Source: Nitrosopumilus sp. (GTDB lineage Archaea > Thermoproteota > Nitrososphaeria > Nitrososphaerales > Nitrosopumilaceae). From it: 64,000 nucleotides of DNA. Below are positions 3,487-50,961 of this stretch, piece after piece (the stretch's first letter is position 1; each line of letters opens with the position of its first letter). The notes beneath the pieces are model-generated. The model had not been told where the DNA came from, did no database searches, and saw only the letters and a program-made list of their open reading frames with translations. The position numbers and the translations under genes were made by a program. The stretch is from assembly GCA_965223425.1 (NCBI GenBank), contig OZ245003.1:1920001-1984000 (forward strand), written 5' to 3'.

Positions 3487-3797
3487 TTCTCCCATACGAA
3501 ATCGTCTCTTATCCTACTGCGGGCCATTCTCAGTGTGCTTTGCTGAATCAGGACGTTTCTGATTTGTCTTGCATCTTCTTATACTTTCTTTGTGTCAACT
3601 CATGATTCTGTATGCGATATTCCTCCATGTTTGTTAGCATGTGCCAGATTATCTCAAGCATCATCTGCCTTGCAGCTGCTATCCTTGCCTTTTGTTTTCC
3701 TCTCCTTTTTGCAATTCTTGAATAAAATGATTCCATCCTTGGATCAAATCGTATCGTAGTGTTTGCAGCCTCCACCATTGCATTGCGCAGCCATGCA
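3487..3797 (-). pseudogene. IS110-family transposase C-terminal fragment plus element right end
   Basis: AWLRNAMVEAA...FYSRIAKRRGKQKARIAAARQ..IIWHML is the typical IS110 C-terminus. Cut at 3798 by an ISH3-like element. Confidence 0.85.
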
Positions 3798-45781: not shown

Positions 45782-45882
45782 TGCAGAGGGTGGGATTTGA
45801 ACCCACGAACTCCTGAGAGAAGGGATTTCCTATTTTGAGGATCTTGAGTCCCTCTCGGTTGACCGGGCTTCGATACCTCTGC
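45782..45882 (-). tRNA. tRNA-Leu(CAA) with a 16-nt canonical 37/38 intron (45827-45842)
   Basis: Acceptor GCAGAGG/CCTCTGC-A, anticodon arm AGGGA-CTCAAG[intron]A-TCCCT, variable arm, GTTCAAATC T-loop. Confidence 0.93.
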
Positions 45883-46024: not shown

Positions 46025-47470
46025 TAGACATTATGCATAATTGACCAGTCAAATTTTTTTTCTACAGCGCAAGCCATCAAGATACAAAGACAGGTCCAAA
46101 AAATGACCCGTCTGGCACAAAACATACGATCACTCAACAGATCCGGGAGAATTCAAGCGCACATGTGCGCACCATTCCATGCATCATGCACCCTGTATCA
46201 CATATCAACAGTCAAGTGACGGCCGCTTTTTCTTTGCATCCCACAGCAAACCAAAGTTTGCAAGGCCGGTACACACAGCCAGCTCCTCGCGAAACTCCTC
46301 TACCGTGCCGTCGTACGGGTCTGTCATCCTCGCCCGCTGCTTTATTCTTCCGATGGCGTGCCCCGCCTTTACCCTCTTGGCGCTGATCCTTTTGTTCGAG
46401 TCCTTTTGCTGCTGCGTCAGCTCCGCTCGTGGCCTCTTTTTTTCCGGCATCTCAAGTGCTATTCCCTCGTAGTGATTGGCATCCCTGGTACCCCTTGTCT
46501 GCAAGCACCGTATCCTGTCCTTTTCCGGAGTGTCTTTTTTGTACATGGATTTAGACCACCTGCCAGTCTGTCGGATCCTCTCTTATCATGGCAAGATCGT
46601 GCGTCCCGCCCTCAAAGGACCTGCCTGCTGCAAGCATCGGGCCTGCCCTGTTTGTTGTTATGGTGGTGTTAATCGTAAAGCGCTTCTTTTTGCCAGAGTA
46701 CGTGTTTTTTCTTTTATCCCTGTCCTGCGGACGCTGCCTTGGCACCACCTCGGTGCCGTCAATTATGATGGTTCTGTCCGGCATTAGCTGCTCTAGCTGC
46801 CCTGATGTCTCGGCCTTTTTTACCAGACGGGTCATCCTGTCTGCAGTAGGCAGGATCCCTGCCAGCACGGAACCTGCGAACCGGAGGTACCTGCACACTG
46901 TGGACTGATCCGCATCAAACAGCGCCCCAGGGCGTCCTGCGTCACGTTTGAGCGCCTGCGGAACAGCGCAAGCAACAGGACGGATCTGCGGCCAGGCAGG
47001 CAGCGGTTTCCGGGATCCGGTGTTTCGTCCTCTGAAAAGAGCGGCGCGTCTTTGTTGTGCCTCTTTGACTCTGCCACAAAGTCGTTGCAGATGTAGTCAA
47101 ACTGGTCAAGGTCATACGGTAATCCCTGCAAGCTTTGCGCTGTTGTGCAGTATGCCGTGGATCACCTCCCTGCTGTGCAGCAGCGACGTGTCCGTATCAG
47201 AGCGGCCTGCATCTGTAACGGCCCACAGGCTGTCCTCGCGCAGCAGCTGCTGCTCGCGCAGCAGGCCAATCGTCTTCTCGCGCTTGCTGATTGCTCTGTT
47301 GTTCTGCTTGATTGCTGTGTCCTTTTGCCTGATTGCTGTGTCCTTTTGCTTGAGCTCTTTTTGCAGCCTGCGTATAGTCTGTTCTGAAGATTCCATTACC
47401 TGTTGCGGCGATCAAAATGGATCTAAATCTTTCGGAAAAATTTTTATGATTCAATTATGCATAAAGTCTA
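46025..47470 (-). mobile_element. IS5-superfamily (ISL2-like) element, full length, frameshifted transposase
   Basis: 20-bp TIRs TAGACWTTATGCATAATTGA at 46025-46044 and 47451-47470; homologous to 1-1431. Confidence 0.9.
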
Positions 47471-47551: not shown

Positions 47552-49306
47552 TCATGTGTTGGAATGAACCTCATATTTTAGATATATTGGTTTTTCCTTT
47601 ACGTCCAAAATATCTAATATTTTTTTGAATTCATCAAAATCCTTGATATCGTCTCTTCCTTCCTTGATAGCTTGATCTACAAAGGATTCTAGTGATTGCA
47701 TGCTATACATTACCGTATACATGATAAATAATTTTCTATTCAAGGTCAAAGATGTCTTTTCATGCATATAGTCTTGAACTATTCGTCTGCTCTGATTCCT
47801 GCTATCTGTCTTACAATTATCTTGCTCGAACTGCAAAATACGTTTTTCATGCATGATGATGCGATGATATAGTTCGCCAAAATCCTTAGAGGGTAGTAAA
47901 TCTTGGACGGATCTACCATGTTGTTTTTTATTGTATCTTGATAAGATATTGATTCTCTCTGATGCCTTTGAAAACTCGTATGTAAGTGATTCTGGATATA
48001 GCAATGCTTGTTTTTCATACGAATCCTTGGGACTGTGACCAAGAACATGATCTGCAACGTCAGGCCTGCATCCAGAATCAATCAGTGTGGATTTTAACAG
48101 ATCCCGCATTTCATGTGGAGTGCACCGATTCATTGTATGATCACCACGTAGTAATTCTACTCTTGCAACCAGCTTGTGAAATCTTCTTGATAGCCAGTTT
48201 ACTGTAATCGGTTTTTTGGCTCTGTTTACAAATAATGCCTCACCAACTTTTGGTTTTGCATGGCGGACATGCAGGTATTCTACTAGAGCAACAACTGCAT
48301 CTGTGTCAAGAAATCCCATATGCAAAAAATCTGTCTTTGTTCTTCTCAACTGTATTGGTACTGAAGTATTTTTGACATCCCATAATTCTGGTTTATCTGA
48401 TTGAAAGTGCTCTACAAGCTGTTCCCATACCTCAAAATTGAATCTGTCTGCAAACGTTGAGCTGTCAAGTCCCCTCTGGAATTTGCATAAAAATACCGCT
48501 TTCTCTATTGGCTGTATGTTTCTAATGGTGAGAATTTTTTGTAGAGTTTCAATGGATAGGGGAGCAGTTGGTATGTTTTTTGTTAATCTAATTCGAGATT
48601 TAAAATAAAATATAATCTCTGATTCGTTTTCCCGAAAAAATGATCTTATTGCATACATGGAATTTTTTACCAGATGTGGTTTCTCATCAAAGGCAATTTT
48701 ACCCAAATACTCCTTTATCTGCCGGGCACACTGACTCGGTACTATTTCGTCATGTACGGATCCCAGGCTTGCAGACTCCATCTGTTCTACGGCCTTTATG
48801 GCATACATCTCAGAGGCATCGATTTTCACATCGTATCTGTCAAGCAGGCTGTGGACGCGGTTTATCACGCGTGTCCTGTCCTGTACGGTCCTGATCCTCT
48901 GTCTGACCATGGCCCGGACTCCTCTTGTGTCAGCTGACGGCACATAACACTCTGGTATTGAATCCATCCTCAATACGTTTGCTATCTTTTGTGCGTCAAT
49001 CTTGTCTGTCTTCTTTCCCGTCTTTGCAATTATTGCCATCTTGTAGGTGTTGGCAAGCTTTATGTCGATTCCATGTCTCTCAAAGGCGCCGTATGTGATG
49101 TTCCACATGTTGCCCGTCGTCTCGCATGCTGCCTGACATCTTCTGGCAGAATACCTGAGTGCCGTCTGTTCTGCGAATCTGTCTGCATCTGAGACGGTGT
49201 TTTGATACTGGCCAGTATGCAAAACCTTTCCCTTCCCGTCCATGACGCATACGTCACATTTTCTCTTTCCAATGTCTATTCCTATGCTGATTGTTCCTTT
49301 GCTCAT
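47552..49306 (-). CDS. chimeric ORF: IS110 DEDD (RuvC-like) domain and coiled coil fused to a tyrosine-recombinase catalytic domain (~584 aa)
   Basis: SD GGAGGTGA before MSKG. IS110 motifs GIDIG, ACETTG and KTDKIDA. After ~48715, integrase motifs FQRGLD, R.KT, HEMR, LGH and downstream Y. Single open frame. Confidence 0.85.
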   Translation of the reverse strand: MSKGTISIGIDIGKRKCDVCVMDGKGKVLHTGQYQNTVSDADRFAEQTALRYSARRCQAACETTGNMWNITYGAFERHGIDIKLANTYKMAIIAKTGKKTDKIDAQKIANVLRMDSIPECYVPSADTRGVRAMVRQRIRTVQDRTRVINRVHSLLDRYDVKIDASEMYAIKAVEQMESASLGSVHDEIVPSQCARQIKEYLGKIAFDEKPHLVKNSMYAIRSFFRENESEIIFYFKSRIRLTKNIPTAPLSIETLQKILTIRNIQPIEKAVFLCKFQRGLDSSTFADRFNFEVWEQLVEHFQSDKPELWDVKNTSVPIQLRRTKTDFLHMGFLDTDAVVALVEYLHVRHAKPKVGEALFVNRAKKPITVNWLSRRFHKLVARVELLRGDHTMNRCTPHEMRDLLKSTLIDSGCRPDVADHVLGHSPKDSYEKQALLYPESLTYEFSKASERINILSRYNKKQHGRSVQDLLPSKDFGELYHRIIMHEKRILQFEQDNCKTDSRNQSRRIVQDYMHEKTSLTLNRKLFIMYTVMYSMQSLESFVDQAIKEGRDDIKDFDEFKKILDILDVKEKPIYLKYEVHSNT

Positions 49307-49488
49307 CCTTCTATCACCTCCTTTCGGATCTTTGACGGATCGGAAGCTGCATACACCTATCAGGGCGCAAGGCCCAGTCACACAGCAGCTCGGATTGCCC
49401 CATTCAAGATCAAGGGCGCATGGCCCATACGTACACAGGGGTCGATTCATCACTACAACTACGACGAGGTGGTTATCATGTGTTCAAG
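49307..49488 (-). ncRNA. candidate IS110 bridge-RNA-like leader
   Basis: Two consecutive stem-loops (49398-49441 and 49345-49390), each capped by a GGGC-N5-GCCC hairpin with a large internal loop, immediately upstream of the IS110 ORF. Confidence 0.6.
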
Positions 49489-50961
49489 CTAAGGAACATT
49501 CATGATTCCTTCTTTGATCAGAAACTGTATTCCTCGAATGAAAGAGTCATCGTCTATTTGTCCTGCTGCCCACCACTCTGCATTGTTTTTAATCCAAGAT
49601 GGGATTTCATTTGAACCAGAACCAGTATTGGATGTTGGCGGAATCTTTATGATTCCTTCTTTGATCAGAAACTGTATTCCTCGAATGAAAGAGTCATCGT
49701 CTATTTGTCCTGCTGCCCACCACTCTGCATTGTTTTTAATCCATGGCGGTATTTCAGAATAGGACACATCATTATCACTTGATTCTTCAAGAAGCGGATT
49801 CTCTGCAATCTCAACTTCCACTATCACATATCCGCCCAATTCAGAATTTGGTACTTCATATTCGTATCCTGTGCCGTGAACAAATATTGCATAACGGACA
49901 GTGCCTGCCTTTTCTTCTATTGGAAGAAGAATGTGGGCCTGGCCAAACCCGTTAAACAGATCTGCACGTCCAATGTCTTTGGCATACGAGCGAATTCTGT
50001 TGTTATCCTCATCTACTACCCAGATGTCATAATGAACCTGATCAACAAATTCCACTTCATTGTACTTGTTCATGAAATTTATTTTCCAGTCAATGTTGCA
50101 GCCCTCAATAGGTACCTCCGGAGAATAGTTGTACTGTACCAGCATGGAAAATGTGTTTGTGGATGCACGGCCACTCACATAATCATGAAATACGGTTGGA
50201 CATCCCAGCAGCTGTTCTTTTTTGACTGTTGATTCAACATCTCTGAAAGGATCATCTGTAACGTTTTCTTCATAATCTAACAAAGTGTACTGATGCATTA
50301 TTGGGGCAATGCCTGTTGTGACCCATGCAAAAGTAAGTGCCTTGAGGGGGAAAGGAAAATCATCCAGTATCCAAATCTCATTATTGTTTCCGCTGTACCA
50401 CCCAACTACAACGGCATCAGCAGTTCCTGCAGGAGTGTTTATCGTCTCCACTCGTTTTGGAATTAGCTGGGCGCCTCCAATGGCTGCAATCTTTCCCCAT
50501 GCGGCATCCCGGAATTCCTTTGGCCCGTGAACTCTATCATCTTCATTTGCAGTGGCAAAAGCAGACAGCCAGCTCAATGAGGACTTGAATCCAATTGCAT
50601 AGTCAAAAAGATCATCATCAAACAAAAAGGGGTTGGGGGCAACCTTGCCAAGCCCCATCGAGCCTTTGATGATCTTATTGCCGTCAATGACTACAACCTT
50701 TGCATCCCACAATGACTCACTTTCATTTTGTATCTCTCCTTTGATCCACATCTTCAGTTTGATTGGTGCACAGTCATTGAGATCTATTTCACACAAAGAA
50801 TACTCAAAGTAATCTCCAATTTTTAGTCCCTCGCCTGAATACCAAGAGCCGTCAACATCAACGCCGCCTGATGTTTGAACGCCCTGGCCAAAAGAGAGGT
50901 TTGAAAATGCAGGAATCGCACCTAAAATTAAAACTGACGCAACAATCAATACTAGTCTCAA
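49489..50961 (-). CDS. secreted protein with two thaumarchaeal C-terminal IPxWIKNNA.WW domains
   Basis: Signal peptide; duplicated IP.WIKNNAEWWAAGQIDDDSFIRGIQFLIKEGI. Confidence 0.85.
   Translation of the reverse strand: MRLVLIVASVLILGAIPAFSNLSFGQGVQTSGGVDVDGSWYSGEGLKIGDYFEYSLCEIDLNDCAPIKLKMWIKGEIQNESESLWDAKVVVIDGNKIIKGSMGLGKVAPNPFLFDDDLFDYAIGFKSSLSWLSAFATANEDDRVHGPKEFRDAAWGKIAAIGGAQLIPKRVETINTPAGTADAVVVGWYSGNNNEIWILDDFPFPLKALTFAWVTTGIAPIMHQYTLLDYEENVTDDPFRDVESTVKKEQLLGCPTVFHDYVSGRASTNTFSMLVQYNYSPEVPIEGCNIDWKINFMNKYNEVEFVDQVHYDIWVVDEDNNRIRSYAKDIGRADLFNGFGQAHILLPIEEKAGTVRYAIFVHGTGYEYEVPNSELGGYVIVEVEIAENPLLEESSDNDVSYSEIPPWIKNNAEWWAAGQIDDDSFIRGIQFLIKEGIIKIPPTSNTGSGSNEIPSWIKNNAEWWAAGQIDDDSFIRGIQFLIKEGIMNVP
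49502..49743. repeat. 95-bp perfect direct repeat (49502-49596 and 49649-49743)
   Basis: Identical nucleotide copies encoding the duplicated C-terminal domain. Confidence 0.9.

Follow-up and report, generated by a model that had tools for sequence, protein, structure and literature searches.

The 180-nt non-coding leader of an IS110-family transposase gene in an ammonia-oxidizing Nitrosopumilaceae archaeon, Nitrosopumilus sp., is proposed, with a probability of about 0.9, to be the gene of a bridge RNA (seekRNA) located in the left end of an insertion sequence (IS) with IS1111-type ends. The leader (49486-49304) belongs to a window of 64,000 nt, i.e., the whole stretch of DNA that was analyzed (contig OZ245003.1, positions 1,920,001 to 1,984,000), and carries two hairpins: hairpin 1 is the putative target-binding loop (TBL), reading both flanks of the insertion site, and hairpin 2 the putative donor-binding loop (DBL), reading the joined ends of the element. 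Coordinates follow window numbering unless prefixed C1 (the window's own genome), and all features of the locus are on the minus strand.

A preliminary description of this stretch had reported two hairpins with matching caps and 9-12-nt arms, which are present on the minus strand exactly as written, and had placed them between an upstream stop codon and a Shine-Dalgarno (SD) sequence, as is indeed the case: the leader is bounded by the stop TAG (49491-49489) of a 490-aa open reading frame (ORF) and by the SD GGAGGTGAT (49321-49313) and ATG (49306-49304) of the transposase gene. Its reading of the leader as an archaeal IS110 bridge RNA is supported by guide-flank matches, donor-end matches and covariation, and the guides, which it had left unassigned, could be identified by means of the genomic copies, the empty sites and 28 related loci. 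Three corrections are needed: the arm order is that of IS1111-type elements and not of IS621, the window copy is truncated and non-autonomous, and a link made to positions 3491-3498 (see below) is due to chance.

Matches of the two loops to target sites and element ends

A search of the window's own 2.64-Mb genome with an 821-nt query gave 19 matches, resolved into copies A to L of an element of about 1403 bp, which amounts to approximately 12 left-end copies or fragments. Copy A (C1:2063373-2064777, ~1403 bp) is the one contiguous full copy, and the only one to keep a full transposase (364 aa, with PF01548 and PF02371, i.e., DEDD and Transposase_20), the right end of the element lying about 130 nt past the transposase stop codon. 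Copies B to E are each broken by other ISs of ~1.1 kb, the window copy is F (left end at 49333-49486), G and H are diverged relatives, and I to L are four solo left-end fragments.

The right ends of copies A to D read ...GGTGGTTAACATAGG-TG, followed by the flank. The uninterrupted flanking repeat is TAGCT-TG-TTGCATAACACGCC, with a second subtype TAGTT-TG-..., and exact empty sites number 7 for TAGCT-TG-TTGCATAAC and 21 for the TAGTT variant, occupied sites reading TAGCT-TG-AACACATG...ATAGG-TG-TTGCATAAC. A second, unrelated target, ggcggCATCT-TG-CGCACAAAGGcc (CATCT-TG-CGCACAAAGG), is found in three empty and two occupied sites, the latter being those of copies B and C. Comparison of empty and occupied sites thus gives TG as the core dinucleotide, with no duplication beyond it, the element sitting between the left target flank (LT)-TG and TG-right target flank (RT). 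Loose ends of contigs from four runs coincide with both element boundaries, and the donor, with its ends joined, would have the sequence ...ATAGG-TG-AACACA.... The terminal extensions are TGAACAC (7 bp) on the left and AGG (3 bp) on the right, and the 12-bp subterminal inverted repeats (sTIRs) ATGATAACCACC and GGTGGTTAACAT match at 11 of 12 positions in copy A and at 10 or more in 9 of 16 related loci, the repeats co-varying between lineages. The element mainly targets other multicopy elements, at their termini.

The targeted termini are TAGCTTG/TTGCATAACACGCCTAAAATC and TAGTTTG/TTGCATAACACGCCTAAGCC, with ggcggCATCTTG/CGCACAAAGGcc as a third repeat (for example C1:836974, 2463560, 459255 and 311529), and many sites are still empty. 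The ISs inside copies B to E belong to two further families, of ~1.14 kb (24 BLAST hits) and ~1.11 kb (17 hits), present at C1 851137-852267, 1872674-1873781, 274253-275603 and other positions of this heavily IS-laden genome; B and C hold the ~1.14-kb family at an identical position. In fragment I (C1:367312-367401), the left-end remnant stops in the TBL 3' arm and directly meets the usual right target flank (GAGTTTGAAT/GCATAACACGCC); a guide-directed deletion was considered for it and not upheld, the junction not being at the core. Fragment J (C1:1117455-1117519) stops just past the TBL 5' arm, beside the end of another repeat.

In the genome of the window, hairpin 1 shows in its 3' arm (TTG-NNNN-TG-AA-T) the succession of LT, core and left end (LE), with an exact match to the copy's own junction in A, B, G, H and I. 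The left end itself begins with the AA of this arm, and as the arm has the same sequence as the top strand it would pair with the bottom strand. Can this correspondence be generalized to other genomes? With a strict regular expression for the twin hairpin, only 10 loci could be recovered; an nhmmer profile, used in its place, detected 33 left ends in the fetched loci, of which four could not be parsed (L038, with its left end off the locus, and L047, L050 and L051, without a GGGG anchor); removal of one duplicate from the 29 parsed left 28. The related genomes are kin, and the permutation figures given below overstate independence accordingly. The four positions of the LT guide are identical to the four bases left of the core in 20 of these 28 loci (95/112 positions in all loci taken together), as compared with 0.66% of 752 cross-pairs, and none of 20000 permutations reached the observed sum. 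For the RT guide, right ends were found for just 14 loci with a parsed 5' arm, in which positions 8-4 of the arm form 45 of 70 possible Watson-Crick pairs with RT1-5 (cross-pair mean 1.44/5; equaled in 0/20000 permutations).

Variation among copies A to F is concentrated in the guides: 5 of 9 guide positions are polymorphic, as compared with 17 of 566 sites outside them (Fisher p = 5.8e-6), and such hypervariability is the prediction of retargeting. The loop of the window copy (ATCT / GTACG) is the same as that of copy B and is programmed for ATCT-TG-CGTAC(A); with one mismatch, this program agrees with the CATCT-TG-CGCAC repeat (ggcggCATCT-TG-CGCACAAAGG) in which B and C are inserted. No exact ATCTTGCGTAC site occurs in the own genome, where 46 sites lie within one mismatch. 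The in-register cognate site of the A-type guide, AGCTTGTGCAT, occurs nine times, always inside one other IS family and never occupied; since these occurrences represent one independent case, at about chance level, no inference was drawn from them.

As for hairpin 2, its 3' arm (TG-ATAGG-TG-TAT) corresponds in the own genome to the last five nucleotides of the right end plus the core, and its 5' arm (TGTGT...) is complementary to left-end positions 2-6 (ACACA). Among relatives, the 5' arm co-varies with the left-end tip (TGTGT/ACACA, TGTAT/ATACA, TGTCT/AGACA, TGCGT/ATGCA), with 73 of 100 Watson-Crick pairs and 107 of 20000 permutations as good, which gives modest support. The 3' arm follows the right end lineage by lineage (ATAGG/ATAGA/ATGGA and TG/AG), and equals an independently located right-end tip in six of eight distinct loci; right ends found with a DBL-derived 7-mer would be circular for this left-donor (LD) test, so that only those derived by regular expression (8 distinct) were used. 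In two loci, the core itself reads AG instead of TG, and does so jointly in both loop arms (TBL and DBL) and at the LE junction. In L030, AG stands in all four places (target, donor and both loops), the right end having been located with the DBL arm itself, and in L033 in the three that are seen, its right end being off the locus. The AA of the TBL also equals the AA of the left end in most loci, both being nearly invariant.

By analogy with IS621 and ISEc11, the element would excise as a circle joining ...GGTGGTTAACAT-AGG-TG-AACAC-ATGATAACCACC..., the DEDD/Ser recombinase bound to the RNA would pair the donor loop with the circle junction and the target loop with a NNNN-TG-NNNNN site, and strands would then be exchanged at TG. 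In contigs of the four runs compared with copy A, no joint of the circle-junction ("go back") type was found, and contigs cannot reveal rare circles. One contig of run X5 shows a 492-nt skip relative to copy A, with a 23-nt side, and is left uninterpreted. A TATA-like TTAACATA in the right end would, from reading the sequence by eye, read across a circle junction.

Covariation and alternative explanations

RNAalifold applied to nine sequences predicted, in addition to the two hairpins, a helix P1 enclosing both (TGATGAATCG with CGATCCGTCA). Tested on 30 related sequences, this structure has 93.3% of its cells paired and compensatory, both-side changes in 16 of its 34 pairs, with both distal stems varying as GC/UA/AU/CG; no measure was reached by any of 500 shuffles, and sliding the partners by 1-3 columns gives only 31.6-50.1% paired. 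The preliminary description had suggested a check by folding and covariation, the two parts of which diverged: covariation supports the structure, and folding of the single sequence is unexceptional (minimum free energy -51.3 kcal/mol, z = +0.89, 163 of 200 shuffles folding at least as well). As the energy model penalizes large internal loops, the single-sequence fold says little.

Several other observations weigh with this fold against a bridge RNA. Eight of the 28 loci lack a perfect LT match (the left-end start being unalignable in three of them, L031, L032 and L048), and the window copy itself carries the LT guide ATCT beside the flank AGCT, which differs at one of four positions. The RT signal is weaker, with a poor fit in L030, L040 and L048, and in copy A a fit only if one T is bulged. 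Conservation of both partners makes the DBL statistics weak (cross-pair mean 3.1/5), the DBL 5' arm falls short of the core, and positions 10-11 of the DBL 3' arm, read by eye, do not match the target, so that a second "handshake" lacks support. In the window copy, PF01548 is present without the Transposase_20 half, and no Rfam family was matched at gathering and E-value thresholds. The best Rfam match, RF01552, is an unrelated snoRNA (E = 0.21, 20.1 bits against a threshold of 35).

Could the hairpins act as DNA only, as subterminal repeats or cruciforms bound by the transposase, without any guide RNA? True inverted repeats exist at the DNA level (the sTIRs), and the palindromic GGGC/GCCC and AGCTGC/GCAGCT stems would form on either strand. 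However, one DBL basal-stem pair is a conserved G-U in 28 of the 30 sequences and one P1 pair is U-G in 15, pairs that would be A-C mismatches on the opposite strand and thus point to an RNA of the sense strand only; moreover, the stems stay paired by compensatory changes while the loops vary freely, and it is the loop arms, not the stems, that track target DNA which was never part of the element. A DNA-only role is thus considered extremely improbable. That the leader acts mainly in cis on its mRNA, controlling transposase translation by sequestering the SD or blocking activation by read-through, with flank matches as a by-product, is judged very unlikely. RNAalifold does pair AACCACC, in the left-end sTIR, with the SD GGAGGTGAT, 87.8-91.7% of pairs being kept, but this helix was set aside for lack of covariation support: it varies nearly one-sidedly, with a single compensated cell in one of five pairs. 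The sTIR, a repeat at the DNA level that co-varies with the right end, accounts for the left strand of this helix, and a leader role leaves the arm-flank and arm-end matches unexplained. Such a leader function and a guide function are not mutually exclusive.

A chance pair of similar hairpins, without function, in a decayed IS fragment would agree with the truncation of the window copy and with its single-sequence fold. This explanation has a negligible probability and is refuted at the level of the family, in which the architecture is kept in 31 of 401 genomes, with covariation and guide-flank matches. Taken together, the bridge RNA reading is the one retained for the leader.

The window copy as a deletion chimera

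In copy F, every genomic match ends at query position 811 (window 48710): aligned with copy A, it keeps identity as far as ...CCCGGCAGATAA and has none beyond, and the GC content falls near 48700 from ~0.48-0.51 to ~0.35-0.40. The ORF at 47552-49306 (minus strand, 633 aa) contains DEDD_Tnp_IS110 at residues 8-158 and Phage_integrase at residues 310-426, and compared with a 560-aa paralogue (C1:1579078-1580760), its tyrosine-recombinase part lacks ~190 N-terminal residues. Residues 1 to ~207 of the transposase are thus joined in frame to an N-truncated recombinase, making this ORF a deletion chimera, and as a contig of run X3 has this fusion junction too, the chimera is not an assembly artefact of the window. 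In the other copies of the IS, an ordinary transposase sequence follows beyond this point. A guided origin of the fusion was rejected, the breakpoint being without TG or guide-like features. Cut at ~48710 and fused, the window copy cannot move itself; the only role it could have is that of a trans-acting guide gene for the intact copy A, and otherwise it would be a relic. The features of the locus are collected in Table 1.

Table 1. Features of the leader and of the adjoining reading frame, with the basis of each assignment; functional names of guides and loops are putative.
Feature	Window positions	Strand	Basis or remark
Left target flank (LT) AGCT of the window insertion	49487..49490	-	Copies diverge upstream of here; contig loose ends start here; overlaps the stop codon of the upstream ORF
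Core dinucleotide TG, common to target and donor	49485..49486	-	Empty versus occupied sites, two independent target families
Left-end tip AACAC, right-donor (RD) sequence; with the core, 7-bp left terminal extension	49480..49484	-	DBL 5' arm TGTGT complementary to ACACA
Left sTIR ATGATAACCACC	49468..49479	-	11/12 positions equal to the reverse complement of GGTGGTTAACAT at the right end of copy A
Enclosing helix P1, 5' strand TGATGAATCG	49443..49452	-	Compensatory changes in 7/10 pairs
TBL (hairpin 1) basal stem, 5' strand CCCC	49438..49441	-	97.5% paired
TBL 5' arm (11 nt) TGTGTACGTAT, putative right-target guide, top-strand complement	49427..49437	-	45/70 Watson-Crick pairs, 14 loci; hypervariable among copies
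Within TBL 5' arm: GTACG (49434-49430) predicted to read RT1-5; UA (49429-49428) opposite core	49427..49437	-	
TBL distal stem-loop GGGC-catgc-GCCC	49414..49426	-	Pair types GC/UA/AU/CG among relatives
TBL 3' arm (12 nt) TTGATCTTGAAT: putative left-target guide ATCT (49410-49407), core TG (49406-49405), AA (49404-49403)	49402..49413	-	20/28 loci perfect over 4 LT positions
TBL basal stem, 3' strand GGGG	49398..49401	-	30-sequence covariation test
DBL (hairpin 2) basal stem, 5' strand GAGCTGC, i.e., (G)AGCTGC	49385..49391	-	97.6% paired
DBL 5' arm (9 nt) TGTGTGACT; TGTGT complements left-end tip ACACA	49376..49384	-	73/100 Watson-Crick pairs
DBL distal stem-loop GGGC-cttgc-GCCC	49363..49375	-	Compensatory changes in 4/4 pairs
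DBL 3' arm (12 nt) TGATAGGTGTAT; ATAGG equals right-end tip, TG equals core	49351..49362	-	Tracks right end lineage by lineage
DBL basal stem, 3' strand GCAGCTT, i.e., GCAGCT(T)	49344..49350	-	30-sequence covariation test
Enclosing helix P1, 3' strand CGATCCGTCA	49333..49342	-	RNAalifold and covariation
Shine-Dalgarno-like GGAGGTGAT of the transposase gene	49313..49321	-	Possible pairing with AACCACC (49474-49468), without covariation support
Transposase gene, N-terminal DEDD half, residues 1 to ~207	48710..49306	-	Homology to other copies stops at ~48710
5'-truncated tyrosine-recombinase gene, in-frame fusion, outside the IS	47552..48709	-	Domain, paralogue and contig evidence

In at least five left ends besides that of copy A, the RNA fold is intact, and their target loops carry different programs. 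Of the six possible combinations of two 5'-arm with three 3'-arm variants, five are present, the arms assorting independently, and copies C, D, E and F mismatch their own flank, each such flank matching the guide of a different copy of this genome, a pattern that fits trans-guidance or gene conversion. That decayed copies persist as orphan guide genes, their bridge RNAs acting in trans as a recombining library of target programs for the last active recombinase, is a doubtful extension of these observations.

The preliminary description had also connected CGTATGGG, in the first hairpin, with a second occurrence at 3491-3498, taken there for an IS110 right end. This connection does not stand: two matches against 1.07 expected, with at least two in 29 of 100 shuffles, correspond to a chance repeat, and 3491-3498 is part of another remnant of the IS110 family (C1:1923566-1923781, 36% identical to residues 288-360). 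Around the locus, the upstream 490-aa ORF (49489-50961, minus strand) ends at its C-terminus in two tandem copies of a ~40-aa motif (...WIKNNAEWWAAGQIDDDSFIRGIQFLIKEGI...). Rfam reports a 101-nt tRNA at 45782-45882 (minus strand, 43.8 bits) that ARAGORN does not call; it is probably an intron-bearing archaeal tRNA, and adjoins a GC-rich block (46100-47450) and the integrase remnant, a setting that resembles an integration hot spot.

Relation to known bridge RNA and seekRNA systems

The loop logic of bridge RNAs has been described for IS621 (Durrant 2024, PMC11208160; Hiraizumi 2024, PMC11208158), and the comparison made here concerns the passages of these two papers that deal with it. Like in IS621, the predicted RNA (~180 nt) is encoded in the non-coding left end, ahead of the DEDD recombinase gene, the first internal loop would read the target and the second the donor, left and right sides are read on opposite strands, and the same 2-nt core is present in both loops. 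The long arm of the target loop also runs past the core, with the nearly invariant AA at a position where a handshake guide may lie. Unlike in IS621, where the 5' arm carries the left target and left donor guides (LTG/LDG) on the bottom strand (PMC11208160), the arm order is reversed, the 5' arm being predicted here to pair with the top strand, on the right side, and the 3' arm with the bottom strand, on the left side and at the core. The core is TG (AG in one lineage) instead of CT, the host is an archaeon, and the subterminal inverted repeats are of 12 bp, those of the IS110 group being of 2-3 bp. Both loops are joined here by an enclosing helix, of which these passages make no mention for IS621.

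In IS1111-type elements, including ISEc11, seekRNAs carry the top-strand complement first, sTIRs are of 11-13 bp, and the left and right terminal extensions measure 7 and 3 bp, respectively, according to the sections of Siddiquee 2024 (PMC11187229) used for comparison, which also place this family in bacteria and archaea. The present element shares with it the arm order, the sTIR length, the 7-bp and 3-bp terminal extensions, the absence of target duplication, and natural reprogramming between close relatives; judged by its ends and arm order, it looks IS1111-type. Unlike in most elements of this type, its ~180-nt non-coding region is upstream of the transposase gene (tnp) and not downstream, an upstream position being given for "a few" exceptions in the same sections. 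As loop logic, arm order and ends match described systems, the element belongs to a known kind of system, in a form that has IS1111-type ends and an upstream RNA. Insertion into the end of another mobile element, always at one position and in one orientation, is likewise described for a known IS; here, the targets are termini of archaeal multicopy elements, with three guide variants together in one genome.

How widespread is this design? Relatives at 69-70% amino-acid identity occur in Nitrosopumilaceae metagenome-assembled genomes, and left-end DNA was matched in 31 of 401 sampled genomes of this family, distributed over 8 of 27 genera. In a sample across the phylum, left-end matches were found in 6 of 56 Nitrosopumilaceae genomes and in none of 344 genomes of other families. 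Further away, an IS110-family element of a Halorubrum ezzemoulense megaplasmid (L055, NZ_CP034941.1 330200-332180, 34.7% amino-acid identity) shows, by eye, an 18-bp sTIR, a TG core, an AGG right extension, a long upstream non-coding region and an arm TTCTGTTGAC repeating its own left junction, despite low sequence similarity. After this example, the association of IS1111-type ends with an upstream RNA may be widespread in archaea. The annotations of plasmid matches, consulted for a subgroup name, give only "IS110 family transposase". A 2024 survey counts, in the part drawn on here, 662 archaeal IS110-family recombinases (bioRxiv 10.1101/2024.06.21.599552), and a literature search found no paper on bridge RNAs in Nitrosopumilaceae, while the supplementary tables of Durrant and Siddiquee may already list archaeal or upstream-non-coding-region IS1111-type elements.

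The element offers a well-resolved archaeal example of RNA-guided DEDD recombinases, in which putative guides, core, donor ends and targets could be assigned from genomic copies alone. IS1111-type ends and arm order co-occur in it with a predicted guide RNA upstream, and such features have been used to separate the two groups, as laid out in the sections of PMC11187229 cited above. For annotation, the leader and its relatives in 31 of the 401 Nitrosopumilaceae genomes would be described as bridge or seek RNA genes, and the 633-aa ORF as a deletion chimera. With its compact size, a 4+2+5-nt target code, a TG core, three natural guide variants and identifiable empty targets, this element would provide a test case for archaeal bridge recombination, and for trans-guidance by defective copies.

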